Source: Escherichia coli (lineage in GTDB: Bacteria; Pseudomonadota; Gammaproteobacteria; Enterobacterales; Enterobacteriaceae). Taken from it: a DNA stretch of 64,000 bases. The DNA lies in NCBI RefSeq assembly GCF_045037415.1, contig NZ_CP173438.1. One strand, given 5' to 3'. This document shows, piece after piece, positions 25,277 through 51,673 of this stretch (position 1 is the first letter of the stretch; every line of letters starts with the position of its first letter). The notes under the pieces are model-generated. The model was not told where the DNA came from, made no database searches, and saw only the letters and a list, made by a program, of their open reading frames with translations. The translations under genes and the position numbers were made by a program.

Positions 25277-27424
<2,148 letters not shown>

Positions 27425-27476
27425 ACAAACTCCCTTTAAAATGGCCGATGGCACCTGTCTATGATAGGTGGCAAAT

Positions 27477-28217
27477 TCAGAAAAGAGAAGATTGCTGTGG
27501 AATAGCCGGAACTGCTCCGATCTCTGGAAGCGTTTTACGTAAGTCTTCCCACAGGGTATGTACCAGTTCCGGGGCCTGGGCAATATCTGGCGTATGTAAA
27601 AAAAGATAAGGCGTAGTGGTCTGATGCCACTGCGCTAATTTTTGTAACCAGACCTGAAATAATTCCCGGTTTTGCGTCATATCATCACTACCGATAAAAC
27701 GGATCAGTGGATTTTTCGCCGTCAGTACAGCATGTACCGGAACTTTAGGTTTTTTTCGTTGAGCGTAGCGAATAGCTTCACTGTGTGGACGTGCTGCATG
27801 AACCGGGCGGCTGTCTAAAATCACCCGATTAACGCCGCGCTGATGTAAACCGCGATTAAGCGTTTGTTCCTCTTCCCCTTTGGCGAAAAACTGTGGATGG
27901 CGGACTTCCACACCATAATTAAATTCGCCGGGAAGAGAATCGAGAAAATGCCAAAGCGCAGGCAGCTCCCGTGGGCCGAATGTGGCAGGCAGTTGCAGCC
28001 AGTATTGTCCAATGCGCGGAGCCAACGGTGACATGCGGGTCAAAAATTCAGTCACTAAATCATCGCAATGCCGTAATGCTGCCTGATGCGAAATAGTCGC
28101 CGGAAACTTAAAACAGAAGCGGAAGTCATCTGTGGTCTGCTCACGCCAGCGCAGGACAACCTCGGGTTTCGGCAGGGCATAAAGCGTGGTGTTACCCTCC
28201 ACACAGTTAACATGACG
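27477..28217 (-). pseudogene. yecE: yecE (DUF72 family) lacking about 29 N-terminal codons; disrupted by prophage integration
   Basis: Frame matches YecE from ...RH(V)NCVEGNTTLYALPKPEV to the C-terminus ...AIPQQSSLF; upstream of about 28217 the frame continues into phage sequence with no ATG and an in-frame stop at 28260-28262. Confidence 0.75.
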
Positions 28218-28228
28218 GGTATTAAGGA

Positions 28229-29542
28229 TTAACTTACTGATTTTAATAAGCCTCTGGTGTCACTTTGGTGACTATGGGGCATCATTGGGACATAATCTGT
28301 CAGCTTCTGATTCAGCATTGCGATCTGTTCTGCATTGCTGTCAGTCATCCATGCTCCGTATACATTGAATACCATCTGGGCACTTGCATGGCCCATCTGG
28401 CTGGCAATGAAGCTTGGGTTTGCTCCGGCAGATAATGACCAGCACGCATAAGTGTGTCGTGACTGGTATGCCTTTCGATGCCTGATCCCTGCACGCTTAA
28501 TGGCTGTTTCCCATGAGTCACCTACAGAATCGACTTTGTAGACAAAACCTACCTGTTCGCTTTTTCTAACCACTTGAGGGTTAAACACGAAAGTACATTC
28601 ATGGTTCACTGAACGTCCATATTCACGTAGTTGCACCTTGATGTTGTACTGCTTACCCAGTCTTGTCATTTCAGCCTGATTTTTCAGGACACTGATAGCG
28701 GGCTGGATAAGGTGCACAACCCTGTTTGTGCTTGCTTCAGTTTTCGGTAGAGTGAACTCACCAAGTTTCGTATAATTGCGCCTGATGGTAATTGTTCCTG
28801 CCTTCAGATCGATATCTTCCCAGGCCAGGGAAACCAGTTCACCGTGACGCATTCCTGTGTACACAGCCAATGACCACAGGTTTTTCGTCTGCTGATGTCG
28901 GCAAGCATCTATCAGGCGAATAAATTCGTCACGAGTTAGCGGATCTGGCTCTGCCCTGGCTCTTTTAAGAGGCTTAATTCCCTGGAAGGGATTTGCTTCT
29001 AAGTAACCGTGATCTGCAGCAAACTGAAACATTCCAGCGATTGTCGTCATGTAATAATTTACAGTAACGACGCTCCGTCCTTTTGCTGCTGCTTTGTTTT
29101 TCGTTGAATTCTGATACCCGGTAAGCAAATCTTTCCTGATATACAGCAATTCCTCTTTGGTTACCGATGACACCAGTCTACTGCCTCCAATTTTCGGAAC
29201 CATCGTTCTTGCAACGGATTCATAGCGATTGAATGCATTTGCAGAGATTTCCATTCGTTTCAGATCCAGCCACTTTTCTTCAAGTTCCTTCACCGTAATT
29301 TCTTTTTTACTTACCCCAAAAGCCTGAAGGTTGGGGGAGTCAGGGAACTGTGCAGCATAATCAAAGCTTCCTGTGCGGATGGCAAAACATACTGATGTCC
29401 GCAGTTCCCCGGCGATCTTCCTGTTCTTGGCAGTGTCAGGGACACCAAGATTTTCCCTGACACGTTTACCTTTAAAATTAAACCAGATGCGTAATGTGCC
29501 GCCGTGGTTTTCGACGCCTGTTGGATATTTGACTTTATCCAT
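28229..29542 (-). CDS. int: phage integrase (tyrosine recombinase)
   Basis: 437-aa ORF; C-terminal catalytic region with R...HxxR...Y arrangement (HTYACWS...GHASAQMVFNVYGAWM) typical of lambdoid integrases; abuts the attL junction. Confidence 0.9.
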   Translation of the reverse strand: MDKVKYPTGVENHGGTLRIWFNFKGKRVRENLGVPDTAKNRKIAGELRTSVCFAIRTGSFDYAAQFPDSPNLQAFGVSKKEITVKELEEKWLDLKRMEISANAFNRYESVARTMVPKIGGSRLVSSVTKEELLYIRKDLLTGYQNSTKNKAAAKGRSVVTVNYYMTTIAGMFQFAADHGYLEANPFQGIKPLKRARAEPDPLTRDEFIRLIDACRHQQTKNLWSLAVYTGMRHGELVSLAWEDIDLKAGTITIRRNYTKLGEFTLPKTEASTNRVVHLIQPAISVLKNQAEMTRLGKQYNIKVQLREYGRSVNHECTFVFNPQVVRKSEQVGFVYKVDSVGDSWETAIKRAGIRHRKAYQSRHTYACWSLSAGANPSFIASQMGHASAQMVFNVYGAWMTDSNAEQIAMLNQKLTDYVPMMPHSHQSDTRGLLKSVS

Positions 29543-29597
29543 CGATACCTCCAGACGCCCAAGAGCGATACGAGCTTACATATTTCATGATATTAAA

Positions 29598-29834
29598 TCA
29601 CCTGGGTTGTTTGTTTTTCATTGAGGCGACCCAGGCATCTATTGCTTTTCTGTTATACATACATTCACTGGAAGGCTTTGGATTACCGTCTGGTGATACG
29701 TGAATATACTCTCTTCCAACCATCCAGCATTCTTTCCGGGCCCGAAGAATTGTGCCTGGTTTGAGCCCGGTAATTGCGATAAGAACGCTTTCACAAACCC
29801 ATTCATTGGGAGCCAGTTGAATCACATTGCCCAT
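29598..29834 (-). CDS. excisionase-like DNA-binding protein
   Basis: 78-aa ORF immediately upstream of int on the same strand; weak resemblance to lambda Xis (GREY..H..S region); assignment positional. Confidence 0.55.
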   Translation of the reverse strand: MGNVIQLAPNEWVCESVLIAITGLKPGTILRARKECWMVGREYIHVSPDGNPKPSSECMYNRKAIDAWVASMKNKQPR

Positions 29835-29992
29835 GTATTACCTCACACAACACTCAGCCCACGGCAGTGGCAACACACTTCAAACATTCGCTTCACAACT
29901 TCACGACAGTAGAAGCCGTCAACATCTCGCGTCAGGTCATAGCGATTGCCGTAACGCTGGTGGACCCATCGTTCAAATGCTTTATTCATTCT

Positions 29993-30235
29993 TTACTTCC
30001 TTTTTATGGCTCGTAATTTTTTCAGGTGCTTTTCCTGCTCAGTGTCCGCGAGAATTTTGCGGTACTCCTGGTGGTCAATATGTTCGAACAGGCAGTTTAA
30101 CTCACCAATGCGTACCCGCCCGGATCGTCCGTCCATCCGTCGAAAGAACACTGAGTGCTCAGTGATGCGAGTAATCACCACGGGGTATCCGGCTCTGTCC
30201 GTGTATATCTGACCGCGTTGAATCAAAGCGAACAT
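29993..30235 (-). CDS. hypothetical phage protein
   Basis: ORF 29993..30289; start placed at MFALIQRGQ... with a GGGGA Shine-Dalgarno upstream. Confidence 0.35.
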   Translation of the reverse strand: MFALIQRGQIYTDRAGYPVVITRITEHSVFFRRMDGRSGRVRIGELNCLFEHIDHQEYRKILADTEQEKHLKKLRAIKRK

Positions 30236-30319
30236 GTGGTTATCCCCAGCGGCAAATCGAATACACCACCAGCGCCACCGCCATCGCAATTCCTACCGTT
30301 GTTAATGCTTCAGGCCAGG

Positions 30320-30664
30320 TCATCGTAAAATATCCTCCACGCTTATCAGTCCGTTCCGCTCCAGATAACTCATCGCCTTATCCGGTAATTTGCAGTCTGG
30401 CTTCGCTTTCCTCAGTTGCCAGGTTAACTGCTTTACCAGCATGGTTAACTCATCGACCAGACGCTGATATCCCACTGGTTTGTATTCATGCAATTTACCG
30501 GCTGGCTCTGCTACCAGCGATACCAGTGCGATTTCCAGAACAGCAATATCCATCTTATATGTGCGGATGATGTCATGGTCGATTGTGCCCGGTATGCACA
30601 GTCTCTGTGCTTCAATAGTCTCCTCTGCGTGAGCTATTAACTGCTCTCTGGTAAAAGTCGTCAT
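30320..30664 (-). CDS. hypothetical phage protein (carries an ...[17 protein letters not shown]... motif)
   Basis: 114-aa ORF; its ATG overlaps the stop of the upstream small ORF (ATGA). Confidence 0.45.
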
Positions 30665-30828
30665 GCCGTAGCCCCTTCTTGATATTTTTCAAACCAGAAC
30701 ACAACCGGCTCTGCTTCCAGCGATACCAGCGCAATCCGTGCCAGTTCCATTTGTTCACCACGGGTAAGCCCGTTTTCAAGCGGATTTTTAATGAACAATT
30801 CAATACGTTCTTTGGTAATAGTGGTCAT
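30661..30828 (-). CDS. small hypothetical protein, paralog of the N-terminus of the 31104..31514 product
   Basis: 55-aa ORF below the ORF-track size cutoff, [44 protein letters not shown]...; near-identical to [44 protein letters not shown]... Confidence 0.35.
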
Positions 30829-30838
30829 GTGTTACTCC

Positions 30839-31102
30839 TTAACCCGCAGTGCTTTCAACTGATGAGGGGAACAAAATCTTTTCATCAAACCCTGCATTCA
30901 TATCATGGACAGCAACACACCAATCCATTGACGAACGATTATCAAGAGCCTCCATGATTTCATCCATGCGGCGCAGGTCATACAGGTAAATGCTTTTATC
31001 GCCAATGGTGTAAAAACCAATTTTTTTCGGTGATGGGCAGCGATCAAGAACGTCCTGTAATTCGTTCAACCATGCCCGTTCTTTTTTTGTTAAAGTTGCC
31101 AT
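30839..31102 (-). CDS. hypothetical phage protein
   Basis: ORF 30839..31213; start placed at MATLTKKERAWLNELQ... behind a strong AAGGAGAG Shine-Dalgarno. Confidence 0.4.
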   Translation of the reverse strand: MATLTKKERAWLNELQDVLDRCPSPKKIGFYTIGDKSIYLYDLRRMDEIMEALDNRSSMDWCVAVHDMNAGFDEKILFPSSVESTAG

Positions 31103-31103
31103 A

Positions 31104-31514
31104 TCACTCTCCTTTCCCATGAAGCATAGCGGCGCGGCAGGCGTTCCAGCCTGTAGCGTATGCAGCCGCTTTGCTGCTGCCTTCAACTGGCGCATCCTGC
31201 CAATACATTTCATCCGGCACTACCGGCGCTGGCAAGGCAGCGTGATAGTAGAGTGGCATAGTTTTGTACAGTGGTTCGCCAGGACTTCCGTCAACCTGAT
31301 TCCATTCTTCAACCCAGGCATCAACAACCGCTTTGCTGGTTGATACATGTTCTTCTGAATCTACATTTTGTCCTGATATACAGAACATAACTGCCTCTGC
31401 TTCCAGCGATGCCAGAGCAATTCGTGCCAGTTCCATTTGTTCGCCACGAGTAAGTCCGTTATCAAGCGGATTTTTAATGAATAATTTGATACGTTCTTTG
31501 GTTATAGCGTTCAT
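31104..31514 (-). CDS. hypothetical phage protein (N-terminal paralog motif)
   Basis: ORF 31104..31556; start placed at MNAITKERIKLF... behind an AAGGAGAG Shine-Dalgarno. Confidence 0.45.
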   Translation of the reverse strand: MNAITKERIKLFIKNPLDNGLTRGEQMELARIALASLEAEAVMFCISGQNVDSEEHVSTSKAVVDAWVEEWNQVDGSPGEPLYKTMPLYYHAALPAPVVPDEMYWQDAPVEGSSKAAAYATGWNACRAAMLHGKGE

Positions 31515-31515
31515 C

Positions 31516-32331
31516 TCACTCTCCTTTGATGCGAATGCCAGTAGCGCGGATTGCATCGATGACTTCAGAAACTTTGTATGCCATTACCGTTTGGTAATCA
31601 TCGTGAAAATCTGTTCGATGAAGCATGCTGCTACGTTCCGGGAGCGATATTTCCCGAGCATCCAGTTCCTTAACGCGCTCCTCCAGTTCGTAGACCCTGC
31701 ATTGTTCTCTATCATCAATCAGATATAACCCAAGACATTCGCTTTCTACCCAACCGCCAAAATCATGATCGTAACGCTCACATGAAAACTCACCGTCACC
31801 GTCCTTTGTTGGAATGGTGTAACTATCTAATGGGCCACCATATGTCGGCACATTTCCCAATGTTGGATGCTCAATCCACATGAAAAATGCACGTCCGGTT
31901 ATTGGGCAAATATCTGGCCGCCATTGGTTACGAACAGCCTTGGTTTCGGATAATTCTTCAGCGTGTTGTTTTACTTCCTCAAGCTCAACTCTCAGCTTCC
32001 CAACCGTAAGAGCAATATCCTCGTTCTTCTGGTCGCGGCGTTTGATGTATTGCTGGTTTCTTTCCAGCTCATCCAGCAGCGCCAAGACGGTAGCCGGATT
32101 GGCTGCAGCGATGAATTCAGCATTGGCCTGCTGTTCCATTTGGAAATCTTCATCGAAACCGCTTTCAGGATGCGCTCCTTCAATTCTGCAAATGGGAATA
32201 TATCCAGCAGCCTCGCGATGAATTAGCGCATCATCACCATCAAATCGGCCCTCTCCATATTCGAGCGACCACTCACCACACGTTGCTTTCTCTGCCTTTT
32301 CACGCAGTGCCTGATAGTCAATCTTGCTCAC
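31516..32331 (-). CDS. Ead/Ea22-like early protein
   Basis: 271-aa ORF MSKIDYQALREKAEKATCGEW... resembling the recalled Ead/Ea22-like family common in lambdoid prophages; memory-based. Confidence 0.5.
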   Translation of the reverse strand: MSKIDYQALREKAEKATCGEWSLEYGEGRFDGDDALIHREAAGYIPICRIEGAHPESGFDEDFQMEQQANAEFIAAANPATVLALLDELERNQQYIKRRDQKNEDIALTVGKLRVELEEVKQHAEELSETKAVRNQWRPDICPITGRAFFMWIEHPTLGNVPTYGGPLDSYTIPTKDGDGEFSCERYDHDFGGWVESECLGLYLIDDREQCRVYELEERVKELDAREISLPERSSMLHRTDFHDDYQTVMAYKVSEVIDAIRATGIRIKGE

Positions 32332-32632
32332 TGGTTGCCTCCTTTGCCGGGATTTCTAACTTTTGAGTGGTTGTATCAAATTCAAACAACTTAACCACGT
32401 CATCAAACAGGACATAATCACCATCAGGATCTTCAGTCATATCTGCGCCACAATCCTGACCGCACGAGTCGCAACCATCCATATCAAGCTCGTATCGCTT
32501 CAGGTTTGCGATATTTGATAAATTCAGCGCCAGTACAGCCAGGTCATAAACCTCTTCGGCAGTGACATCGCTGTTCAGTCCCATTTCATGGCGATATATG
32601 ATTTTTTCTACTCGTTGTTTTGTGATCGTCAT
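32318..32632 (-). CDS. hypothetical phage protein
   Basis: ORF 32318..32656; start placed at MTITKQRVEKIIYRHEMG... Confidence 0.35.
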   Translation of the reverse strand: MTITKQRVEKIIYRHEMGLNSDVTAEEVYDLAVLALNLSNIANLKRYELDMDGCDSCGQDCGADMTEDPDGDYVLFDDVVKLFEFDTTTQKLEIPAKEATSEQD

Positions 32633-32892
32633 TTTTCTCTTCACTCCGATATACAAGGATTACCACACCCCCTCTGCTGATTGCGCGAGCTGGATCCCCT
32701 GGTTCCATGCCGTCAATTCCGAAGGCTTCGGAAAACGCATTCATTGCCTTCTGGCGTTCATCCTGCTTACGGCGTTTATTCCATTTTTTCAGGAACAACA
32801 GCGACAGCCACCGTCCGCTGCAGAACACGATGTAAAAATAACCAAGGAGCGCCAGGCCGACATTCAGGGCCGTTTCTATGGTTAGTTGTGAG

Positions 32893-33141
32893 TCAGTTGC
32901 CATTTCTTACCTGTTTAAGTAACTGGTTGAACATAACACTTAGGGGATTGCTGTATCCAAACGGCAGATTGTTTACGCAGTACAGAATCATTTTGTTTTT
33001 TTCTCCAGTTCGTACTATTAACCCATTCCACAATAACCGTGATAATTCATTACTGATAGAAGTTGCGCTTCTTCCAAGTGCGAGGGATATATCTTCTCTA
33101 CTGCAATCTGGATTTTCCTGGATATACTCGATAACGGTCAT
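32893..33141 (-). CDS. putative winged-helix DNA-binding protein
   Basis: ORF 32893..33183; start placed at MTVIEYIQENPDCSREDISLALGRSATSISNELSRLLWNGLIV..., helix-turn-helix-like pattern. Confidence 0.35.
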   Translation of the reverse strand: MTVIEYIQENPDCSREDISLALGRSATSISNELSRLLWNGLIVRTGEKNKMILYCVNNLPFGYSNPLSVMFNQLLKQVRNGN

Positions 33142-33151
33142 GTGGTCCCTT

Positions 33152-33733
33152 TTACTTAATATCTGTTTCGGATTGCATGCCATGAGTATTCATTTCGTTA
33201 ATAATTTCATCCAGAAGGATTTCAAGCCCTTCTCGACCCATATCTGAAAGAATGAAACCTTTATCAGGGGAAGTAGTGAGCATTTTCTGATAAAGAAACA
33301 GCGCTCTTCCCATTCCTTCAGCTTCGCCGTATTTTTGAATTAAATTCCATTCAATATACTGTTGTAAGGCAAATCGAATGGGGCCGGGATATATCGTCAT
33401 AAACCCATACATCCCGTTATATACCACGGCGTGTTCAGTTGTTCCGTGTTCATTCAGGATATCAATTGTGCCGTTCTTGTCTTCTTCTTCGTTGATGAAT
33501 GTCGTCACATACAACCATCGCCACTGAGCAACCTTCATCTCAACCGGAAGTTTACCCAGTAATCCTGCTTCGTCGGCTTGCGCCAGACACTGAAGGATAC
33601 GTAAACCTCGCACATTAGGAGTATCGAATTCTCCGGCATCCAGACGACGTATGGCGTCGTGATAATCAATCGTCATACTGCCAGTTCGTATACCATTGGC
33701 TGTTGCTTCAGCCTGGAATTCATCGTATTGCAT
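33152..33733 (-). CDS. hypothetical phage protein
   Basis: 193-aa ORF with no recognisable motifs. Confidence 0.45.
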   Translation of the reverse strand: MQYDEFQAEATANGIRTGSMTIDYHDAIRRLDAGEFDTPNVRGLRILQCLAQADEAGLLGKLPVEMKVAQWRWLYVTTFINEEEDKNGTIDILNEHGTTEHAVVYNGMYGFMTIYPGPIRFALQQYIEWNLIQKYGEAEGMGRALFLYQKMLTTSPDKGFILSDMGREGLEILLDEIINEMNTHGMQSETDIK

Positions 33734-33738
33734 GATAT

Positions 33739-33921
33739 TTATTCCTCATCTTCATCTGCTGGTGCAATAACGTCATATCCTGCCTTTTCTGCAATAAACA
33801 GGAATGTTGAAAGAGTTCCTACAAGTTCATCGTCATGAACATGGCGAATGAATATTACTTTCCCGTTTTTGATGGTCAGCAATACTCTGGTTTGTTCGTG
33901 TTCTGCTGTTTTCTGATGCAT
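33739..33921 (-). CDS. hypothetical small phage protein
   Basis: 60-aa ORF tightly packed after the upstream gene. Confidence 0.3.
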   Translation of the reverse strand: MHQKTAEHEQTRVLLTIKNGKVIFIRHVHDDELVGTLSTFLFIAEKAGYDVIAPADEDEE

Positions 33922-34115
33922 TATTATCTCCCGTATGCTTTACGCAGAAATAAGCAGGCAATATGCATGTAATTTTCACCGTATTGTGCAATAAGGCAGG
34001 CGGTCTTGTGTGATGCCATATTCTTTATAAAAGTCACAATAAAGCCTCCTGTGGATTAAGGTTGTAACAATCCCCGGCGATAAAACCGCAATAAACGTTC
34101 AGGGCATATTTGTTG

Positions 34116-34481
34116 TTATTGCGCTAATTCTTTTTCGGCAGCAGCTTTTGTATACTCACATGCAAAATTCAGAATTTCGCTGCCGAGTGTTTTCGTTTCG
34201 TGATTACTGGACATATGTAATACCTGTGTTGCATGCAATAAATGATAAACATTTACCGCAAATGAATCAGGCTCCAGGCAAATGCCTTCGTAATTATCTT
34301 GCTGTGAGGTTGTTTCTGTCATTGCTCCTGAAGTGCATACGAGCCTGTTTTTGACAATTCTCTTTTCTCTAATCACTATATCGGCAACATCTATTGCCTT
34401 TACAACCTCCGGGAGAAGTTCCGGGTTTGTATAATCAAAGTCATCAACATGGAGAACAGTTATGTTTTCGAACTTTTTCAT
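34116..34481 (-). CDS. hypothetical protein in the cI-downstream (rex-equivalent) slot
   Basis: 121-aa ORF with no recognisable motifs, preceded by a 128-bp intergenic region. Confidence 0.45.
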   Translation of the reverse strand: MKKFENITVLHVDDFDYTNPELLPEVVKAIDVADIVIREKRIVKNRLVCTSGAMTETTSQQDNYEGICLEPDSFAVNVYHLLHATQVLHMSSNHETKTLGSEILNFACEYTKAAAEKELAQ

Positions 34482-34609
34482 GGTTTCCTCAGCTGACTTA
34501 TATGTTCTGCTATATAGCGAGTCTCAGAAGTGTTTTCATATTAAGACTGTTTCCGCAATGATTGATAAAAATGTTCGCATGTACCTTGAGGGGCGAAGCG
34601 GCGATTATG

Positions 34610-35113
34610 TCACCATTGGTATTGGTTCTTCCGTAGAAGAGCTTCGCGAGATAAGGGGCAAACTTGTTGAGATGCGTCATGGTGTTGCTGCTCCTCACTT
34701 TTTGGTTGCTCCGGAGGAGTAACCTCACCAGTTAACAGCCACATCGCATCGCAGCCAAGAATATTTGCCAGTGGGATAAGCATACTGATAGTTGGTTCAT
34801 ACTCTCCGCTCTCCCACTGGATGATAATTTCTTCATCGAGATCGAGCAGCCTGGCGAGTTCGGCGGTTGTTAAGCCGCAGGCTTCGCGTTGGGTGCGAAG
34901 ACGGTTGTTGATTGCAGAATTTTTGTTCTGTAAAAGCATTGCTGACGATAGCTTTCTGGATATGCTATTTGTCATATCCCATGCCAGTCCTGCGCATGAC
35001 TCTATATCGCTAGAGAGCGTAGCATCAGGTGTTGCTTTTGCTATTAGTGTAATGAGGCTGCCGAGGTTTTTCAGTTCTTCGAGACAGTCAAGAGTTGTAG
35101 CTTTATTGATCAT
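34610..35113 (-). CDS. HTH-XRE family DNA-binding protein with an unusual N-terminal extension
   Basis: 167-aa ORF; classic XRE helix-turn-helix segment NNRLRTQREACGLTTAELARLLDLDEEIIIQWESGEYEPTISMLIPLANILGCDAMWLL located in the C-terminal half; true start uncertain (internal Met candidates). Confidence 0.55.
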   Translation of the reverse strand: MINKATTLDCLEELKNLGSLITLIAKATPDATLSSDIESCAGLAWDMTNSISRKLSSAMLLQNKNSAINNRLRTQREACGLTTAELARLLDLDEEIIIQWESGEYEPTISMLIPLANILGCDAMWLLTGEVTPPEQPKSEEQQHHDASQQVCPLSREALLRKNQYQW

Positions 35114-35216
35114 GAGATGATACCTCAGTTACGAACTTTGTTTTATGGTAACTAAGGTATCAAGGTGTGGCAAGTGATTTTTGATACTTTGGTTTCTTTT
35201 TGTGTTTTGTTTCTGG

Positions 35217-35873
35217 TCAGAAAATATCCCACCTGGCATCAACCACAACACCTACTATTTCGCAATCATTGTCCATTTCTATGATTGGATATTGTGGATT
35301 AAGGGGCTTTAGAAACGCCTTTCCCATGTCAGAAATATATTTTTTGAATGTTGCTTCATTGGTAGATTTTTTTCTGGCGATGACGTAACACCCTGAAAAA
35401 ACTTCTTTATCTGGGTTGACAAGGATCGACATTCCTTCAGGAAATGTTATTCCTACGGGCGAAGTCATTGAGTCTCCGTGCACTTCCAGCCAGAACCCCC
35501 TCTCACCAGCGTATTTTACAGAATGCCTCCAATTATCCTGATCATACATGTTGTAGTCATCACCAGAAGTTGCGAATAATCCTGCCTGAACCCAGTTAAT
35601 TACAGGGTAAGAGTGTGCTGTGTCTCTCTGTGGGCAGCTCTTAACATTATTTTCCCAATGCTTATCTTTTTCATCTCCGTTCTGAAGCCACTGCGGTGAA
35701 CACCGCAGTGCAGCTGCAACTTTAAAAAGGGTGTCACCGTTGAAACTTTTTGTAAGGCCTTGCTCGGCTTTACTGATTGCAACTCTGGTGATCCCAGCTT
35801 TTTTAGCCAACGCATCTTGTGTTAACCCAGCTTTTTGCCGTGCGTTGATGAGACGTTCACCTAAAGACTTCAT
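35217..35873 (-). CDS. CI-like prophage repressor (N-terminal HTH plus C-terminal S24 LexA-like peptidase)
   Basis: ORF 35217..35948; start placed at MKSLGERLINARQKAGLTQDALAKKAGITRVAISKAEQG; C-terminal domain has VHGDSM (Ser) and downstream Lys of the S24 autoprotease. Confidence 0.82.
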   Translation of the reverse strand: MKSLGERLINARQKAGLTQDALAKKAGITRVAISKAEQGLTKSFNGDTLFKVAAALRCSPQWLQNGDEKDKHWENNVKSCPQRDTAHSYPVINWVQAGLFATSGDDYNMYDQDNWRHSVKYAGERGFWLEVHGDSMTSPVGITFPEGMSILVNPDKEVFSGCYVIARKKSTNEATFKKYISDMGKAFLKPLNPQYPIIEMDNDCEIVGVVVDARWDIF

Positions 35874-35984
35874 TTTTCTTCTCCTCTCATGGCTGTTGAT
35901 ACTAAAGTAACAGAATTTCTTGATACTTTGGATTCCTGTGGTTAACATCGTTGAATAACAAAGTATCTGGTGTGAGACTAAAGA

Positions 35985-36212
35985 ATGACCCTTTATGAAA
36001 TATTAAAAATTCAATTTAAAACCAATGCCGCTATTGGTCGCAGGTTCCCAAAGAAAGGAAGGCCTCGTGGCAGTCAAGGTGTTGGAAAGTGGAAAACGCG
36101 AGGTGTTCCGGAGGATGTTGCCATTCTTTGTCATCTGGATCCGAGCATTCCATATACACACCCAAGTCTAGCGAATACAGAAGATGACAAGCCCACAGGA
36201 GACCAACAATGA
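35985..36212 (+). CDS. ORF in the cro position (divergent from the repressor); function unverified
   Basis: 75-aa ORF divergent from the cI-like gene; no clear helix-turn-helix by eye, assignment positional only. Confidence 0.3.
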   Translation: MTLYEILKIQFKTNAAIGRRFPKKGRPRGSQGVGKWKTRGVPEDVAILCHLDPSIPYTHPSLANTEDDKPTGDQQ

Positions 36213-36916
36213 ACACCGCAATTTTTAACGGCAAAGCATCCATGACCAGCGTTGAGATCGCAGAGCTGGTGGGAAGCCGACCAGATAGTGTTAAGAGAAC
36301 TATTGAAACACTGGCTAAAAAGGGAATCATCCAATTTCCACAGACTGTGGAAATTGAGAATAAACAATCACTTGGGCCTCGCCGATTTTCTAGCGCGTAT
36401 GTATTCGAAGGTGAACGAGGTAAGCGCGACAGCATCATTGTCGTCGCACAGCTCTGTCCTGAATTCACAGCTCGCCTGGTAGATCGCTGGCGCGAACTGG
36501 AAGAACAGATCCGTAAGCCAATGAGCGAAATCGAAATGGTTGCCGCGATGGCTCTTGAAGCCGTTCGCCAACAGAAACGGATCACTCAGGTGGAAGAAAA
36601 AGTCAGCCACGTTGCTGAAACAGTCGAGCAAATTAAAAAGGGCACTATTCGTGAGGGCTATGCCGGATATCGCCAACTGAAAGCAAAAACCGGTTTGTCA
36701 GATGATAAATGCCGCAATCTGGTGAACGCCTATCAAATTCCTACAGACACACATGAGTTCATGACGCCGGACGGATTGTTGTCACGTCGCGCAATTGTTG
36801 CTGTGGAACCGTTTATGGCTGCTTTTTATCGGGTTATGGAGGAAGCAGAACCGCGAGGGACTCGCTGGTATCACCCGAAAATGGGGTTATTTCAGGTTAT
36901 TGGTTGGCAGCGGTGA
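36209..36916 (+). CDS. Rha-like / antirepressor-like phage regulatory protein
   Basis: 235-aa ORF; N-terminal segment MTSVEIAELVGSRPDSVKRTIETL resembles the Rha-type DNA-binding motif pattern. Confidence 0.45.
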   Translation: MNTAIFNGKASMTSVEIAELVGSRPDSVKRTIETLAKKGIIQFPQTVEIENKQSLGPRRFSSAYVFEGERGKRDSIIVVAQLCPEFTARLVDRWRELEEQIRKPMSEIEMVAAMALEAVRQQKRITQVEEKVSHVAETVEQIKKGTIREGYAGYRQLKAKTGLSDDKCRNLVNAYQIPTDTHEFMTPDGLLSRRAIVAVEPFMAAFYRVMEEAEPRGTRWYHPKMGLFQVIGWQR

Positions 36917-37024
36917 AAAAAAGCCGGGAGTAACCCGGCTCACTCAACATCAATAACGGGGAGCTGTTTCGCATAAAACGGCTCCGAAACATCCAAGAAC
37001 AGTTCTAAAGATATCAGCAGCTAT

Positions 37025-37325
37025 ATGATCATTTCAAGACCAAATATTGATTCTGCAATTTCGGGACGTTACACTGTCTCCGCACCTTATAAAGCGGGTG
37101 CCGGGATTGGCGTCCTGAAATTGTCAACGGCGATGTATGACGCGCCAGCGTCTTTTTTATCGTCCGCATTTGCTCACATCCAGATTATGGTGGGCTGGGC
37201 GGGGGCACCGAAAGGTGCGCCGGTTCTCCGTTGACGCCGGTTACGCCAACCCCGTCCAGTTCACCACCAGTGAAATTGGCGTTTCCGGTGGTGGAAGTTT
37301 TTCACTGTCAACGGAGGCTGCCATC
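37025..37325 (+). repeat. about 300-bp leader repeat, copy 1 (terminator-like hairpin plus GAAA-tetraloop stem)
   Basis: Direct repeat of 37685-37984; the first about 60 nt are near-identical (atattgattctgcaatt.cgggacgttacactg...accttataaagcgggtgccggg); contains gacgcgccagcgtc followed by T6, and gcaccGAAAggtgc. Confidence 0.5.
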
Positions 37326-37688
37326 ATGGCTACTGTCCTAACTTCCCCATTCCTAAAAATCGAAGTCGTCAACGGCAAGGCCGTTATTTTCTCCCTGCAT
37401 GTTGCCTGCCATTTCAAGCGCATGCACCAGAACATCGTTGACAAAATCGAGTATCTGAACTGCTCACGCGAGTTTTTTACCCGCAATTTCATACCGGGTA
37501 CTTATCACATCTACGGTGACTCCCTGCGTGGTTATTACATCACCCTTGATGGTCTGATGATGCTTCAGCTTGGGTTAAGTCTGCGCACAATGCGGTACTA
37601 CGAGAGCTGTATTGAAGCATTCCATGAGGCTGAAACCGTCCAGGGTCACTCCGCGTTCCGTCGTAATCAACGGGAGGTGCACCTATGA
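37326..37688 (+). CDS. Rha-family regulatory protein (short form)
   Basis: Start placed at MATVLTSPFLKIEVVNGKAVIFSLHVACHFKRMHQNIVDKIEYL... behind a GGAGG Shine-Dalgarno; the Rha N-terminal pattern parallels the next gene. Confidence 0.55.
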   Translation: MATVLTSPFLKIEVVNGKAVIFSLHVACHFKRMHQNIVDKIEYLNCSREFFTRNFIPGTYHIYGDSLRGYYITLDGLMMLQLGLSLRTMRYYESCIEAFHEAETVQGHSAFRRNQREVHL

Positions 37689-37984
37689 TCCGCCACCAGC
37701 ATATTGATTCTGCAATTCCGGGACGTTACACTGCTCAGGCACCTTATAAAGCGGGTGCCGGGCGTGGAAACCCGAAATTCAATATAGAGCACAACCGCGC
37801 TCATGCGGTTTTTTCGTGTCATGAGCATCGTTACACCCAAATTATGGTGGGGCGTGCAGGGCCAACTTCGGTTGGGCCGGGTTCTATGTTGACCGGTATT
37901 TCCACCCCTGTACGTCTCACCACCTATATGGTCGTGGAAAGCCTTGGTGGTGAGTTCATTGAATTCAACATAGGGGCTGTCACC
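37685..37984 (+). repeat. about 300-bp leader repeat, copy 2 (terminator-like hairpin plus UUCG-tetraloop stem)
   Basis: Direct repeat of 37025-37325; contains ccgcgctcatgcgg followed by T6, and ccaacTTCGgttgg; in frame with the downstream Rha ORF, so it could alternatively be coding. Confidence 0.45.
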
Positions 37985-38536
37985 ATGACTACTCTCCCAA
38001 CCCAATCTCACCCTGAAATCACGATTATCAATGGTCGCGTTGTCACCACATCTCTTGCAGTAGCTAATTACTTTACTAAACGGCATGAGCGGGTTTTAGA
38101 TAGAATTAGAAACCTCGAATGTTCCGCTGAATTTACTGAACACAATTTTGTGTTAAGTGAATACACCGACGCATCAGGCCGCAAACTCCCTTGTTACCAA
38201 ATCACCCGCGACGGTTTTGCGTTTCTTGCCATGGGCTTCACTGGTAAACGTGCTGCCCAGTTCAAAGAGGCATACATCAACGCCTTTAACCTGATGGAGA
38301 AGAGTTTATCAGGTGCCGATGCGTCTGATATGTCAGCTGTCGCACGAAACGCCAGAGGCGTATACCTGCATTTGCGTGAAATCCATCAAATCTGGACAAG
38401 CCAGCTTTATCCAATGCTTAAGGCCGTTGAATCTCCGCTGGCTAGCAAACTGTACGACCGTGTTGGTGATGCTGTTTTTGGCGCTGCACTTGTTGATTCC
38501 AGGCTGAATGGTTCTGACAAGGAGGTTCGCCCATGA
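37985..38536 (+). CDS. phage regulatory protein Rha
   Basis: ORF 37685..38536; Rha-like segment EITIINGRVVTTSLAVANYFTKRHERVLDRIRNLECSAEF...YQITRDGFAFLAMGFTGKRAAQFKEAYINAFNLME; start placed at MTTLP behind an AGGGG Shine-Dalgarno. Confidence 0.65.
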   Translation: MTTLPTQSHPEITIINGRVVTTSLAVANYFTKRHERVLDRIRNLECSAEFTEHNFVLSEYTDASGRKLPCYQITRDGFAFLAMGFTGKRAAQFKEAYINAFNLMEKSLSGADASDMSAVARNARGVYLHLREIHQIWTSQLYPMLKAVESPLASKLYDRVGDAVFGAALVDSRLNGSDKEVRP

Positions 38537-38727
38537 TTAGTTACGAAATCATCATCTCCACTACGGAATACAGAAACGATGTATCAGTTCGCACGGATGT
38601 ATCTGTCTGGCACCGTCGCTATAAATCCAGAAAAACAGCGGAACTGAAAGCGGCAGAGATGTGTGAAACCATCTCAATGAAAGGTAGCCCGGTTAAATAC
38701 GTAACTACGGCGGAGGTGCGTCCATGA
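38533..38727 (+). CDS. hypothetical small phage protein
   Basis: 64-aa ORF, ATGA-overlap packing with neighbours. Confidence 0.35.
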   Translation: MISYEIIISTTEYRNDVSVRTDVSVWHRRYKSRKTAELKAAEMCETISMKGSPVKYVTTAEVRP

Positions 38728-38948
38728 TCCGCCACATCGTTAATTCCCTGTATCACCGATACAACCGTTGCCCCCGTGTGGGGCAGTGGTTCGCCACCAG
38801 CAACGGTCACGTTCTGCGGGTTTGCCTAGTCAACGCTGAAAGCCAGAAAGTCGTGTGCGAACTACAGGGGCGTAGCTACACCATCAGTTACCCTCTGGCG
38901 GTATTTCTGTCTGGAAAAATGTTTAAGCGTCTGGGAGGTGTGGCGTGA
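38724..38948 (+). CDS. hypothetical small phage protein
   Basis: 74-aa ORF, overlapping-stop packing. Confidence 0.35.
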   Translation: MIRHIVNSLYHRYNRCPRVGQWFATSNGHVLRVCLVNAESQKVVCELQGRSYTISYPLAVFLSGKMFKRLGGVA

Positions 38949-39244
38949 ACTGTTTTCAGTTTGTGTGCGGATGTGCTTTCGATAACCCGATTCAGCGCCT
39001 AATTATGTTGCGTGTTTTGATGTCGGGTTCTTCAGACGGTGAAGGCGAGAGAGTTATTGATCATCAGGTGCTTGCTGATTTCTGCTGTTGTTCTAAGCAA
39101 GCGATATTCAGGGAAACCCTGGCACTGGAAAGAGCTGGTTATCTTCATATCCGAAAAATTGCAACGCTTACTATTGATGCAAAAGCCAGACTACAACCTG
39201 CGCGTGGCTACACAATTCTCATGCCGCGGAAGGAGGTTGTATGA
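38945..39244 (+). CDS. hypothetical protein, possible DNA-binding
   Basis: 99-aa ORF directly upstream of the replication module. Confidence 0.35.
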   Translation: MNCFQFVCGCAFDNPIQRLIMLRVLMSGSSDGEGERVIDHQVLADFCCCSKQAIFRETLALERAGYLHIRKIATLTIDAKARLQPARGYTILMPRKEVV

Positions 39245-40227
39245 GCCGTTACGCCCCCACACCGGAAGTTATGGCTATTGGTCAAATTAATATTTCCGGC
39301 AATGTTACACCTGCGAACTGGTGGAAATATATTCGACTACCCAGTGGGCGTCCGGATGCGACGGCTATCGCTCTGCTTTCAGAGATCGTTTACTGGTACC
39401 GCCCGACAGAGGTCAGGGATGAGCACACCGGAGCGTTGCTGGGATATCGCAAGCGTTTTCAGGGCGACAAACTGCAAAGAAGCTACCAGGCGTTTGCTGA
39501 GCAGTTTGGTTTCGGGAAAAGGGAAACCGCAGATGCGCTGAAGCGTCTGCGCGATGCAGGGTTTATTACTCTGGATTTACGCACGGTGGAAATGCTCGAT
39601 GGGGTGAAATGCAGCAATATTTTGTTTGTCGGGATCAACCCACAGGCAATTGCGGCCATCACCACACCTTCTTCTGTTTCGCCAGAAAGTAACAGCAATA
39701 ATGCAATCAGCGATACAGCTATTACGTTAAAACGGAACACCCCCCGACGTCATAACGGAACAGGGGATACGCCGAATGTTGATACAAATACAGAGATTAC
39801 TACAGAGATTACAACGGAGACTAAAAACACTATTGATGCATCCGCTGACGCGTCTGCGCGTTCTGCCCGACAGGAATATTCACCGGAATTTGAACAGGCC
39901 TGGCAGGAATATCCCAAACGTGCTGGTGGCAATTCCAAGTCAGCAGCCTTCAAAGCCTGGAAAGCCCGTATCAGGGAGGGAATAAAACCGGAGACCATGC
40001 TTGATGGCGTGAAGCGGTATGCCGCCTGGGTACGTGCTACAGGAAATACCGGCACACAGTTCGTGAAGCAGGCTGCGACGTTCTTTGGACCCGATCGTCA
40101 CTTCGAAGATTACTGGCAACAGCCAGCCGCTCACGGAGGTGGGCGACAGCGACAGGTCGATGTCCTGGCTGGCCTGGGAGCCATGTCTGACAAATTCGGT
40201 AAATCCAGTAACAAATTGACATTCTGA
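39241..40227 (+). CDS. replication initiator (lambda O-like position) with internal iteron-like repeats
   Basis: 328-aa ORF preceding the DnaC-like and DnaB-like genes; linker region TEITTEITTE encoded by the direct repeats cagagattac(ta) and cagagattac(aa). Confidence 0.55.
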   Translation: MSRYAPTPEVMAIGQINISGNVTPANWWKYIRLPSGRPDATAIALLSEIVYWYRPTEVRDEHTGALLGYRKRFQGDKLQRSYQAFAEQFGFGKRETADALKRLRDAGFITLDLRTVEMLDGVKCSNILFVGINPQAIAAITTPSSVSPESNSNNAISDTAITLKRNTPRRHNGTGDTPNVDTNTEITTEITTETKNTIDASADASARSARQEYSPEFEQAWQEYPKRAGGNSKSAAFKAWKARIREGIKPETMLDGVKRYAAWVRATGNTGTQFVKQAATFFGPDRHFEDYWQQPAAHGGGRQRQVDVLAGLGAMSDKFGKSSNKLTF

Positions 40228-40228
40228 G

Positions 40229-41137
40229 GTGACAGCGATGATGACGATTGACCAACGTGAGAAACAAACAAGACTACAGGCGCGAATGGATGAGTTACGG
40301 GCAGAAATGGATGAGTTACGGGCAGAGATTGCATTTGCTCAGAAGGGCGAAAAGCCATGGCCTTATCGTTCCTGCCTGATGCGTGAAGGTCGCGGATATT
40401 GCGAAAAACACGGTAAATATCGTACGCATATACTGGTGTGGATCGATCGTAATGGCGAGGACAGAGAAAAAATTTCATGCTGCCCTGACTGCTTGATCGC
40501 TGAGGCCAGTGATTTGACCATGGAACTGTCGTCCCTCAAGGCGGAAGAACTGACTGATAACGCCGGAATTGCTCTGCGTTTTCGGGACTGCGAGTTTGAT
40601 AATTATCTGGAGGTTAATCCTGACGCAGCCAGAAATCTTGCGGCCTGTCGCCGCTATGCGGAGAACTGGCCAGATATGCTGGAGAACGGTACCAGTCTTG
40701 TTATGACCGGCAGTTGCGGTACCGGGAAAAATCATCTGGCGGTATCAATGGCAAAACACATCATCCGTAACTATCTGGCCAGTGTGGAGATCACCGACGT
40801 GATGCGCCTTACCCGGGCTGTGAAAAACTGCTGGCGGAATGACAGTGAAAAAACAGCGGATGACGTCATTGAGCATTATGCGTCACTGGATTTGCTGATT
40901 GTCGACGAAGTCGGCGTTCAGTTTGGCAGTGCGGCTGAAATGGCCATTTTGCAGGAAATTATCAATGCCCGGTATGAGGGTATTTTGCCAACTATCCTGA
41001 TCAGCAACCTTTCACCGGAAGAATTGTGGGCGTTCATCAGTCCCCGGATTGCCGACAGGATCACCGATGGCGGGCGCAACTGGTTGTCGTTTAACTGGCC
41101 CAGCTACCGTTCTCGTATCGGAGGTGTTGCCGCATGA
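40229..41137 (+). CDS. DnaC-like helicase loader (AAA+ ATPase)
   Basis: 302-aa ORF with Walker A GSCGTGKNHL and Walker B LLIVDEVG. Confidence 0.75.
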   Translation: MTAMMTIDQREKQTRLQARMDELRAEMDELRAEIAFAQKGEKPWPYRSCLMREGRGYCEKHGKYRTHILVWIDRNGEDREKISCCPDCLIAEASDLTMELSSLKAEELTDNAGIALRFRDCEFDNYLEVNPDAARNLAACRRYAENWPDMLENGTSLVMTGSCGTGKNHLAVSMAKHIIRNYLASVEITDVMRLTRAVKNCWRNDSEKTADDVIEHYASLDLLIVDEVGVQFGSAAEMAILQEIINARYEGILPTILISNLSPEELWAFISPRIADRITDGGRNWLSFNWPSYRSRIGGVAA

Positions 41138-42534
41138 CCAGCCAGAACACCCCGGCATGGCGTAACGATGACCTGGAAGGCGCTGTCATCGGTGCGTTTT
41201 TTCTGCGTGGGGCCGATCCGGAAGTGATGGATATTCTGGCCACACTTCCGGCGGATGTATTTTTTGTGCGTCAGTACCGGGATATTTACGCGGGGATTTG
41301 CAGACAGGCTCGCATATCCGGCGTCATTGACCCCGTACTGCTGTGCAATGAGATGCCGGAACTTGCCCCGGTGATTACCGACACCGGACGCAAAACCTGG
41401 GTGAAGTCTTCACTGGAGCACTATGTCGCAGCGTTGCGGCGCAATGCCGCACTGCGTGATGCAGAAAAAACACTGACTGAAGCATTACAGAATTTACGTG
41501 ATGCGTATACCTGTGAAGCAGCCGAGGATGCCCTGAAGGATGCGCAGAACATGATGGCCTCACTGTCGACCGGAAAGGGCGTCATTCAGCCGGTTCACAT
41601 TGATGATGTCCTTCCGGAAGTGGTCGACCGTGTTGAATGCCGCAATCAGGGACTGGAGAAATCCAGGGCGCTGATGACCGGTATTGATGAACTGGACGCA
41701 AAAACGGGCGGTATGGAGCCCGGAGACCTGGTATTCATTGCCGCCCGTCCTTCGATGGGGAAAACCGAACTTGCGCTGGACATCATCGACAAGGTGACTG
41801 AGCAGGGGCATGGCGTGCTTCTGTTCACCATGGAGATGGCGAACATCCAGATTGGTGAACGTATGGTGTCTGCTGCCGGTGGAATGCCGGTATCCCGTCT
41901 TAAGTCTGTTGCCCGTTTTGAAGATGAAGACTGGGCGCGTTTCTCGCAGGGCGTGGGACGAATGACGGGGCGTAATATCTGGATGGTGGACCAGGCAAAC
42001 CTGACCATTGATGAGATATGTGCAACCACGAAGCACCACCGGATGAAGCATCCGGAAACGGCGCTGGTTGTGGTCGATTACCTCGGCCTGATTAAAACCC
42101 GCAGCACGGGGCGTCACGACCTTGCTGTGGGGGAAATCTCAAAGGGACTTAAAAGCCTGGCAAAATCCGGCGGTTTTCCGCTGATTGCTCTGAGCCAGCT
42201 CTCCCGTGGCGTGGAATCCAGACCCAATAAACGCCCAATGAACTCGGACCTGAAAAACTCCGGGGAAATCGAGGCGGATGCCGACATCATTCTGATGCTT
42301 TACAGGGAGGAGGTATACAACCCGGAAACTCAGGCCAGAGGCATAGCAGAAATCAACATCACGAAACAGCGTAATGGCACGCTCGGGACCATTTACCGGC
42401 GTTTTCATAACGGACATTTTCTGCCTGTGGACCAGGAGAGTGCCCGGGTTCTTTCCACACCAATGCAACAGCCCCAGCCGCGCAGATACAGCAACAAACG
42501 AACTGACAGCAGTAAGATGGAGCGTTTCTTTTGA
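41134..42534 (+). CDS. DnaB-family replicative DNA helicase
   Basis: 466-aa ORF with Walker A ARPSMGKTELALD and DnaB-like C-terminal domain motifs (VVVDYLGLI, LSQLSRG). Confidence 0.85.
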   Translation: MTSQNTPAWRNDDLEGAVIGAFFLRGADPEVMDILATLPADVFFVRQYRDIYAGICRQARISGVIDPVLLCNEMPELAPVITDTGRKTWVKSSLEHYVAALRRNAALRDAEKTLTEALQNLRDAYTCEAAEDALKDAQNMMASLSTGKGVIQPVHIDDVLPEVVDRVECRNQGLEKSRALMTGIDELDAKTGGMEPGDLVFIAARPSMGKTELALDIIDKVTEQGHGVLLFTMEMANIQIGERMVSAAGGMPVSRLKSVARFEDEDWARFSQGVGRMTGRNIWMVDQANLTIDEICATTKHHRMKHPETALVVVDYLGLIKTRSTGRHDLAVGEISKGLKSLAKSGGFPLIALSQLSRGVESRPNKRPMNSDLKNSGEIEADADIILMLYREEVYNPETQARGIAEINITKQRNGTLGTIYRRFHNGHFLPVDQESARVLSTPMQQPQPRRYSNKRTDSSKMERFF

Positions 42535-42788
42535 ACAACCAGACAATGACTTTTACCCCTGAGCAATTACGTAAACAGGCACAGGAAATGTTGCGGCAGG
42601 CGGAACAACTGGAAAAAACAGGTGTAACAAAAGATGCCATTCGTCGGGATATGGTGCCAGCGCTCAGGGAACTGATGCAGGCAAAACACCGTGCACAAAA
42701 AGCAGTGGATGAGCTGGTGGATTGTGTGGCAGAGCTGGAAACCAGAGTTGGTAAGTTTGAAAAACTGGTGCAGGAGGTACTGCGCTGA
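42531..42788 (+). CDS. hypothetical coiled-coil protein
   Basis: 85-aa ORF, overlapping-stop packing. Confidence 0.4.
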   Translation: MNNQTMTFTPEQLRKQAQEMLRQAEQLEKTGVTKDAIRRDMVPALRELMQAKHRAQKAVDELVDCVAELETRVGKFEKLVQEVLR

Positions 42789-43156: not shown

Positions 43157-43219
43157 AATCGTTCTACTTTCCCAACTTTTATGTGTATATAATACCAGGA
43201 TAAAGTAACGGAGAATCTT

Positions 43220-44918: not shown

Positions 44919-44920
44919 AG

Positions 44921-46078: not shown

Positions 46079-46186
46079 ATCACTGTTCCTTTAATTGGAG
46101 TTGGAAATAGATTGTAAGAAAACTATAACGCGTACGCAAAAAATATTATATCGTGTTAAGAGTGGTTACTACGCCACACAGCTTAA

Positions 46187-46212
46187 ACCCGCCGCCAGGC
46201 GGTTTTTTGTGT
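46187..46212 (+). terminator. intrinsic terminator on the + strand (candidate late tR'-type terminator)
   Basis: cccgccgccaggcgg hairpin followed by a T6 run, between the DUF262 gene start and the next + strand ORF. Confidence 0.45.
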
Positions 46213-51661: not shown

Positions 51662-51673
51662 GGGCGGCGACCT
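51662..51673 (+). other. cosN cohesive-end site (lambda-type 12-nt gggcggcgacct)
   Basis: Exact lambda cosN 12-mer, flanked upstream by ...gggtcctttccggcgatccgaccggttacg and downstream by cgcgggttttcgctatttatgaaaattt, both recalled lambda right-end and left-end sequences. Confidence 0.75.

Follow-up and report, generated by a model that had tools for sequence, protein, structure and literature searches.

The left early region of a prophage in Escherichia coli (NCBI RefSeq assembly GCF_045037415.1, contig NZ_CP173438.1) was analysed within a stretch of 64,000 nucleotides of this contig, referred to here as the window. The region lies between xis and the immunity region and is very probably the leftward delayed-early operon of a lambdoid prophage that has no recombination (Rec) module, N/nut system, cIII or Kil, and in which the host RecBCD enzyme and Chi sites would be used instead. 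Direct observation underlies the lack of homologues and of nut and put sequences, the statistics on Chi, the boundaries of the mosaic and the conservation of the open reading frames (ORFs).

Absence of recombination and early regulatory genes

The region encodes 13 minus-strand ORFs located from 29843 to 34481, with products of 48, 80, 114, 55, 87, 136, 271, 104, 105, 82-96, 193, 60 and 121 aa. An additional, optional ORF of 37 aa is annotated by related phages. A first-pass annotation made from the sequence alone had described about 12 small, tightly packed and partly overlapping ORFs plus an Ead/Ea22-like gene, and this count is correct: five junctions overlap (by 4, 14, 47, 11 and 32 nt), the gaps at six others are at most 10 nt, and the 271-aa ORF matches the Ead/Ea22 family PF13935. 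PHROG matches were obtained for all 13 ORFs with E values between 2.4e-18 and 3e-90 (the 37-aa ORF was outside the family scans), and the 10-kb stretch 27000-37000 is 100% identical across 89 complete E. coli genomes. Because of these matches and this identity, the early-left ORFs are considered to be real genes and not chance reading frames.

The same annotation had recognised no exo, bet, gam, kil, cIII or N in this region and had proposed profile hidden Markov model searches for standard Red, N and cIII homologues. These searches were run with PHROGs, Pfam and NCBIfam, and none of the 13 ORFs matched Exo, Bet, Gam, Kil, cIII, N, Erf, Abc1/2, Arf, Ral or SieB. The 62 leftover minus-strand frame segments of at least 20 aa were also scanned with Pfam, and no family was found at E values up to 1. 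A tblastn comparison of 50 early proteins of lambda and P22 with the whole window returned only cI/C2, Ea22, the N-terminal part of EaA (twice) and EaD.

When considered by function, no single-strand annealing protein of the Bet/RecT, Erf, Sak/Rad52 or Sak4 type was matched in PHROGs, Pfam or NCBIfam, and lambda Bet and P22 Erf gave tblastn E values of 0.047 or worse anywhere in the window. No exonuclease of the lambda Exo/YqaJ type was found by the profile scans, the leftover-frame scan or tblastn. No RecBCD inhibitor (Gam or Abc2) was found either, the best tblastn hits being located outside the prophage at E 0.05 or worse. Homologues of cIII and Kil, of the lambda or P22 type, were absent from the profile and leftover-frame scans. 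A single tblastn hit of lambda cIII at 29500-29571 (E 0.009, 24 aa) was rejected, as it lies on the plus strand across the start of int and the int-xis gap and is at chance level for 50 queries. The early-right operon is composed of a replication initiator, a DnaC-like loader, a DnaB-type helicase and a Q-family antiterminator, and no NinB or Rap was found within it.

Chi sites and the Rec-less class of lambdoid phages

The Chi sequence (GCTGGTGG) occurs nine times on the top strand (29956, 36265, 39922, 42713, 46241, 46557, 49765, 50167 and 50214) and three times on the bottom strand (30266, 37693 and 38794). These 12 sites in the early half of the prophage (28229-51800, 23.6 kb) compare with 0.67 expected from composition, which is an 18-fold enrichment (Poisson p about 1e-11). 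The top strand is the active orientation for RecBCD entering from the right cos end, and seven of the nine top-strand sites are located between the replication genes and cos (39922 to 50214), in the last 11.7 kb before cos at 51662. In strain THO-003, where the prophage was examined over its whole span, there are 10 top-strand Chi. No Chi was found between cos and the end of the window, and the late half is free of Chi over approximately 25 kb (51800-64000 and onward in THO-003). The Chi-free late half has a G+C content of 55% compared to 47% for the Chi-rich early half. The same pattern of Chi is exhibited by two relatives of the prophage, phiP27 (12 top and 5 bottom) and PhiR49_2 (11 top and 3 bottom).

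A class of lambdoid phages with these features has been published. Zheng, Casjens, Davidson, Amundsen and Smith (2025) found 68 of 314 lambdoid phages to be without a Rec module, and 62 of these 68 have at least 8 active and at most 6 inactive Chi, concentrated towards the right end (PMC12315714). The type phage of the class, LLS, grows better with RecBCD and is without N (PMC12315714). A lambdoid class with no Rec module and many Chi was also recorded by Bobay et al. 2013 (PMC3784561), and Red-type genes are missing in about a fifth to a half of lambdoid phages (PMC12315714, PMC3784561). The present prophage exhibits lambdoid organisation, no Rec genes in the early-left or nin regions, and nine active and three inactive Chi, concentrated towards the right end. 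Judged from its sequence, it matches the published Rec-less, high-Chi class and is predicted to depend on RecBCD. The contrast between a Chi-rich early half and a Chi-free late half suggests a fairly recent join of modules from a Chi-accumulating and a Chi-avoiding lineage. This junction of a Rec-less, Chi-rich early half with a lambda-type late half free of Chi fits the model of Zheng et al., who predicted recent shuffling of this kind between the two strategies.

Left promoter and antitermination

The putative pL and OL are located at 35114..35216 on the minus strand, where a promoter scan that also finds lambda pL and pR identified a -35 element TTGCCA (35173-35168), a 17-nt spacer and a -10 element TACCAT (35150-35145). 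A 15-nt inverted repeat is found beside this candidate at 35118-35132 and 35148-35162. The 12-mer TTGATACTTTGG occurs in only two exact copies in the window, one at 35181-35192 and the other at 35920-35931, over the -35 element of the candidate pR. Only about 30 nt separate the -10 element of the candidate pL from the ATG of the first gene, which encodes a helix-turn-helix (HTH) protein, and this distance leaves no room for a leader element.

Nut sites and an N-like arginine-rich motif, which the first-pass annotation had singled out for specific searches, were not found in the early operons. A scan for boxA plus boxB found no nut site in 29500-35220 on the minus strand or in 35900-44000 on the plus strand, nor was an exact boxA present. 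A covariance model of the HK022-type put RNA, built from HK022 putL and putR, had its best window match at E 0.84, inside the Q gene. The search for a promoter-proximal arginine-rich protein returned only out-of-frame segments without start codons. Positive controls were recovered in all three of these scans, namely lambda nutL and nutR, putL and putR, and the N, P22 gp24 and Nun proteins. N and gp24 gave tblastn E values of 0.11 or worse in the window. One arginine-rich segment, RLNNRRTRQAARSR, which lies in another frame within the HTH gene (34836-34964), was set aside since no start codon gives it an ORF of at least 30 aa.

A terminator scan that identifies at least seven hairpins with stems of 8 bp or more on the leftward strand of lambda found none above 6 bp in 29598-35113 of the prophage. 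Because strong intrinsic terminators are missing and the genes are tightly packed, the left arm probably does not need processive antitermination, and N would be unnecessary for its transcription. Once the cI-type repressor is inactivated, transcription would probably begin at the candidate pL within 35114-35216, cross the HTH gene, the next gene (which encodes a protein similar to phiP27 L08) and about a dozen accessory genes, and reach xis and int. This left-arm transcription would probably proceed without N. Host RecBCD and RecA, working at Chi sites of the phage itself, would most likely provide the recombination needed for replication and packaging, and the small ORFs would be exchangeable and probably non-essential accessory genes. 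We infer four parts of this scheme: the position of pL, read-through without antitermination, RecBCD dependence and the dispensability of the ORFs.

Immunity region

The first gene after the candidate pL (34610..35113, minus strand) occupies the position of N in lambda and encodes an XRE-family HTH protein of 167 aa that is similar to phiP27 L10 (Pfam HTH_3, E 1.3e-10). The protein also matches the NCBIfam DicA subfamily below the cut-off (E 1.5e-12), PHROG 4739, and PHROG 4836, which is labelled 'CII-like regulator'. A sequence search of the Protein Data Bank (PDB) showed matches to the DNA-binding domains of P22 C2 and the 434 repressor. The family is widespread in E. coli prophages, with variable ends and no functional name. 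The next gene (35217..35873, minus strand) encodes a cI-type repressor with HTH and S24 peptidase domains (HTH_3; Peptidase_S24, E 4e-22) of the phiP27 immunity type, which exhibits homology with P22 C2 (tblastn E 1e-56). On the plus strand, the candidate OR and pR together with the gene in the cro position are located at 35874..36212. The -35 element of the candidate pR is TTGATA (35920-35925) and its -10 element is TAACAT (35943-35948), and the gene in the cro position (35985-36212, plus strand) encodes 75 aa and matches PHROG 4749. Rha/Roi-type regulators follow on the plus strand.

A mosaic junction is located inside the HTH gene. The L10-like proteins of two immunity types, represented by this prophage with phiP27 and by PhiR49_2, share the HTH and the C-terminal tail and differ over the first ~55 residues, and the cI proteins of the two types are unrelated. 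It is a tentative possibility, which we hold to be clearly less likely than the opposite, that the phiP27-type early region runs a lysis-lysogeny and early transcription programme without N, cII and cIII in which the XRE-family protein is the replacement regulator, and that some of the orphan ORFs, such as that of the 193-aa protein, could be new host-takeover or anti-defence factors.

Mosaic structure and lambdoid organisation

The gene order of the prophage is int, xis, ea-type genes, cI, cro, replication, Q, lysis, cos and Nu1 to J. The late half is composed of lambda-type genes Nu1, A, W, B, C, D, E, FI and onward to J, followed by lom, stf and tfa. An exact copy of the lambda cos 12-mer (GGGCGGCGACCT) is located at 51662..51673 on the plus strand and corresponds to the right end of the virion map. 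No stx gene was found in the prophage, and late genes of the phiP27 type were not encountered.

The closest phage records are PhiR49_2 from ECOR13 (PV340570), which covers 74% of the region at 99% identity, and the Stx2e phage phiP27. Segments 28200-31106 and 32300-34900 are similar to PhiR49_2 with 98-99% identity, and the immunity block 34727-36184, which includes the N-terminal half of the HTH gene, cI and the cro-position gene, exhibits 95.5% nucleotide identity with phiP27. From its sequence, the prophage is a mosaic of an int-to-Q half of the phiP27/PhiR49_2 type and a lambda-type late half. This agrees with the earlier description of a mosaic phage whose accessory gene set differs from that of lambda despite a lambda-like late region. 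The difference extends beyond the accessory genes, as the whole early regulatory circuit is of the phiP27 type, with no N, cII or cIII.

Alternative explanations

One alternative is that the early half is not lambdoid at all. If it came from an unrelated temperate lineage that was joined to lambda late genes, a comparison with N, Red and cIII would be beside the point. The early-right region encodes two tandem P1-type C4 antisense RNA modules with isrK by the ash-family and Rha-family genes, which would favour such an origin. However, the gene order is canonically lambdoid, cI is similar to P22 C2, the Ea22, EaA and EaD segments are common to lambda and P22, Q belongs to the lambdoid Q-family antiterminators, and Zheng et al. 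count such phages as lambdoid (PMC12315714). A non-lambdoid early half is thus unlikely, and it is a matter of classification that is compatible with the proposed mechanism.

The ORFs could alternatively encode functional analogues of Bet, Exo, Gam, N, cIII or Kil that have diverged too far to be recognised or are not homologous. The 13 ORFs have no assigned function, the 193-aa ORF is of a size seen in strand-annealing proteins, with a fold that has no known relative, the L08-like protein has no confident model, and according to Zheng et al. the true absence of a Rec module in such phages is not unequivocally known. The model of the 193-aa protein was searched and no recombinase, nuclease, strand-annealing or Gam-like fold was found. 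Analogues of this kind are considered improbable.

Decay of a prophage that once had Red, N and cIII is very improbable. Phages deposited as complete records (phiP27, PhiR49_2 and the yecE-integrated Stx1a phages) have the same Red-less, N-less architecture, the genes are intact, tightly packed and of full length against PHROG profiles with no scar of a deletion among them, and the 18-fold Chi enrichment common to the relatives points to long-term adaptation and not recent loss. Some signs of decay are nevertheless seen: the identical THO-003 prophage has a frameshifted gpJ and partial genes for a methyltransferase and DUF6645, an ash-family gene in the window is split by 1 nt inserted at 37225, and the Prokaryotic Genome Annotation Pipeline (PGAP) flagged two partial genes at 31122-31514.

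Several points weigh against a Rec-less, N-less operon served by RecBCD and Chi. Absence of homology is not absence of function, and most early-left ORFs are small and without known function, only some having been modelled. The assignment of pL is based on a 9-of-12 consensus match and shared operator-like repeats. The put model recovers putL and putR at E 1e-20 to 1e-22 and has limited sensitivity, being built from two sequences, and the terminator scan covers intrinsic terminators, with Rho-dependent ones outside its scope. Taken alone, the 9 of 12 Chi that share one orientation in this prophage do not amount to a significant bias (binomial p = 0.15). The host flank (1-27000) contains 10 Chi, of which 9 are on the plus strand, co-oriented with the top-strand Chi of the prophage, and host-like composition could contribute to the Chi of the prophage. 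The case for Chi rests on density, clustering and agreement with the relatives.

Integration site and early-left genes

The window begins with the host segment cheA to cmoA and yecN of the E. coli chromosome, after which comes the prophage, integrated at the 3' end of yecE, a DUF72 gene (27477-28202). The tyrosine integrase gene (28229..29542, minus strand; PHROG 1 integrase, E 2e-86) is annotated by PGAP as a tyrosine-type recombinase overlapping the DUF72 gene. The excisionase gene (29598..29834, minus strand) is of the DUF1233 type (Pfam PF06806, E 9.5e-33; PHROG 539, E 5e-40). The int-xis segment has 91.7% nucleotide identity with phiP27.

The first early-left ORFs next to xis, of 48 aa (PHROG 3871) and 80 aa (DUF4222, PHROG 285), are located at 29843..30235 on the minus strand, and the PGAP coordinates agree. 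ORFs of 114 aa (PHROG 660), 55 aa, 87 aa (PHROG 1714) and 136 aa (PHROG 5117) follow at 30320..31514 on the same strand, as identified by PHROG matches. A segment similar to the N-terminus of P22 EaA is common to the 55-aa and 136-aa ORFs, with identities of 84% and 60% respectively by tblastn of EaA. It is encoded by a 146-nt direct repeat at 30695-30840 and 31381-31526, the two copies of which are 86% identical, and such repeats could mediate deletions or module swaps inside the operon. A weaker third copy of the repeat motif forms the start of the 104-aa ORF at 32632. PGAP lists the 136-aa ORF as two partial pseudogenes, yet it aligns over the full length of PHROG 5117.

The Ead/Ea22-like protein of 271 aa is encoded at 31516..32331 on the minus strand and matches PF13935 above the gathering score over residues 2-130 (E 2.2e-32). 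Lambda Ea22 matches it by tblastn at E 1.7e-20, and the similarity is confined to the N-terminal ~130 aa. Ea22 favours lysogeny and is the sole studied gene of the lambda ea region (PMC7093339, PMC10834534). Among the families of early-left ORFs, experimental data exist for Ea22 only, of which the N-terminal domain alone is shared here. PDB sequence searches with the Ea22-like protein and with the 193-aa protein returned no matches.

The 104-aa ORF (PHROG 3126) and a 105-aa DUF4752 protein are encoded at 32318..32903 on the minus strand (PHROG, Pfam and PGAP). The N-terminal stretch of the DUF4752 protein is hydrophobic, as judged by eye from its sequence. The next ORF (32893..33183, minus strand) encodes a predicted MarR-like winged-helix protein of 82-96 aa that matches PHROG 1687 (E 1.3e-24) and, weakly, the Ren-like PHROG 142. 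Its Pfam matches to MarR_2 and HTH_24 are both under the cut-off, and it is not annotated by PGAP. An 84-aa homologue is assigned to the MarR family in the Stx1a phage Stx1_14040.

The 193-aa protein (33152..33733, minus strand; PHROG 1515) occupies the position of phiP27 L06, and its structure is confidently predicted as a fold with no known structural relative. The following ORFs, of 60 aa (PHROG 340) and 37 aa, are located at 33739..34037 on the minus strand and are both annotated in PhiR49_2 and Stx1_14040.

The phiP27 L08-like protein (34116..34481, minus strand) matches PHROG 5451 over its full length (E 4e-83). In a family alignment of 18 sequences, the N-terminal half is invariant or nearly so. 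Since the family is conserved across 121 aa, this is taken as the length of the gene product from the sequence alignment, and the 68-aa call by PGAP is too short, having missed the N-terminal half. The structure model has low confidence, with a predicted local distance difference test (pLDDT) value of 59, and was too poor for a fold search. A kinship of its C-terminus with the N-terminus of the L10-like protein, which was prompted by a shared match to PHROG 4836, was dropped after BLASTP gave E 0.74. PADLOC analysis of seven early-left ORFs found no defence-protein match, the sole hits being to the generic HTH domain of the L10-like protein.

On the plus strand, a doubtful ORF of 86 aa (34462-34722; PHROG 6104, E 5e-48) occupies the 128 nt between the L08-like and HTH genes and extends into the 3' end of the latter, at roughly the position of sieB in lambda and P22. 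Its product is not hydrophobic. The ORF lacks conservation in phiP27, and neither PGAP nor the PhiR49_2 record annotates it. It is uncertain whether this ORF is a real gene.

As the prophage is unchanged in at least 89 complete E. coli genomes, its uncharacterised ORFs occur commonly in sequenced isolates, and a screen of them for roles in regulation or anti-defence would be possible.

Early-right and late regions

The early-right operon contains two tandem P1/P7-type regulatory units at 37069-37271 and 37726-37927 on the plus strand, adjacent to ORFs 37025-37688 and 37685-38536. Each unit encodes c4-a1b1 target sites (under the gathering score), an isrK Hfq-binding RNA and a C4 antisense RNA. 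The C4 matches (82 and 78 bits) and the isrK matches (62 bits) are all above gathering. In THO-003, an ash-family gene contains the first unit. The second is embedded in a Rha-family gene, the N-terminal part of which matches Pfam Phage_ASH. This arrangement suggests a duplicated, RNA-controlled antirepressor-like module. Relative to the otherwise 99.99% identical THO-003 prophage, the window has a 1-nt insertion at 37225 (GGTTCTCC compared to GGTCTCC), through which the first ash-family gene, 220 aa in THO-003, becomes ORFs of 69 and 183 aa. The insertion reflects a genuine frameshift or else an error of sequencing.

Directly after the Rha/Roi gene, at 36921-36941, lies a strong hairpin with a T-run (GAGCCGGGTTACTCCCGGCTTTTTTT). 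It is oriented to stop minus-strand transcription and has no U-tract on the plus strand. To its right there is no minus-strand gene, whereas phiP27 has the minus-strand gene L13 between L12 (in the cro position) and L14.

An insert between Q and the lysis genes (43220-46078) encodes a Dcm-type cytosine methyltransferase (43220-44260, plus strand) and a convergent pair made up of a HEPN-like nuclease by PGAP name (44229-44918, minus strand) and a DUF262 protein (44921-46078, minus strand) that matches PADLOC NsnA (E 6e-46) and PD-T4-2_A. The insert is probably an anti-phage defence locus. Past the point corresponding to the end of the window, THO-003 (L008 27371-29270) has reverse-transcriptase and SLATT-domain genes beyond the tail-fibre genes, followed by a frameshifted dinI-like gene. 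The reverse-transcriptase and SLATT pair is probably a defence system as well.

Comparison with known phages

The exo-xis (ea) region of lambda, with ea8.5, ea22, orf61, orf63 and orf60a, and the ea genes of P22 occupy the same early-left position by xis and are likewise largely uncharacterised. This prophage has in common with them the N-terminal domain of Ea22 and segments of EaA and EaD. In contrast, homologues of orf60a, orf61, orf63 and ea8.5 are missing from it and the C-terminal domain of its Ea22-like protein is a different one. The lambda ea region adjoins Red, of which the prophage has nothing.

Phage phiP27 (NC_003356 / AJ298298) is integrated at the same yecE site, and its block of L08, L10, cI (L11) and L12 is 79-95.5% identical to that of the prophage, which indicates the same immunity type. 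It lacks N, cIII and an orthologue of cII, and many key lambdoid regulators are unidentifiable in it (Smith et al. 2012, PMC3430580). The absence of N, cII and cIII and the richness in Chi are thus features of both. Unlike this prophage, which has heads, tails and cos of the lambda type, phiP27 carries stx2e and an annotated contractile-tail, HK97-like late region, and the two do not correspond over the middle of the early-left region (30236-33174). PhiR49_2 and the Stx1a/Stx2a phages integrated at yecE (e.g. Stx1_14040, LC567819) have the same order of small ORFs, Ea22, 193-aa ORF, L08 and L10. PhiR49_2 is distinguished by an unrelated cI and another L10 N-terminal part, and thus another immunity, and by a different Ea22 segment.

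Phages of the LLS class share with the prophage the lambdoid order, the lack of an annealing protein, exonuclease or anti-RecBCD gene, Chi between the replication genes and cos, and, as noted for LLS, the lack of an N homologue. LLS, ST64B and phiNP encode yfbR-, yfdQ- and yfdP-type genes in the early-left region, where this prophage has homologues of phiP27 L06, L08 and L10 together with Ea22/EaA-type genes. LLS has 23 Chi in total compared to the 12-13 counted here, and the late half of this prophage is of the lambda type and has no Chi. Earlier work has already described the phenomenon, in early regions of the phiP27 type as well as in the class of Rec-less, Chi-rich phages. The prophage carries little weight as a discovery and is of use as a clean, well-delimited case in which a Rec-less early half rich in Chi adjoins a Chi-free late half of the lambda type.

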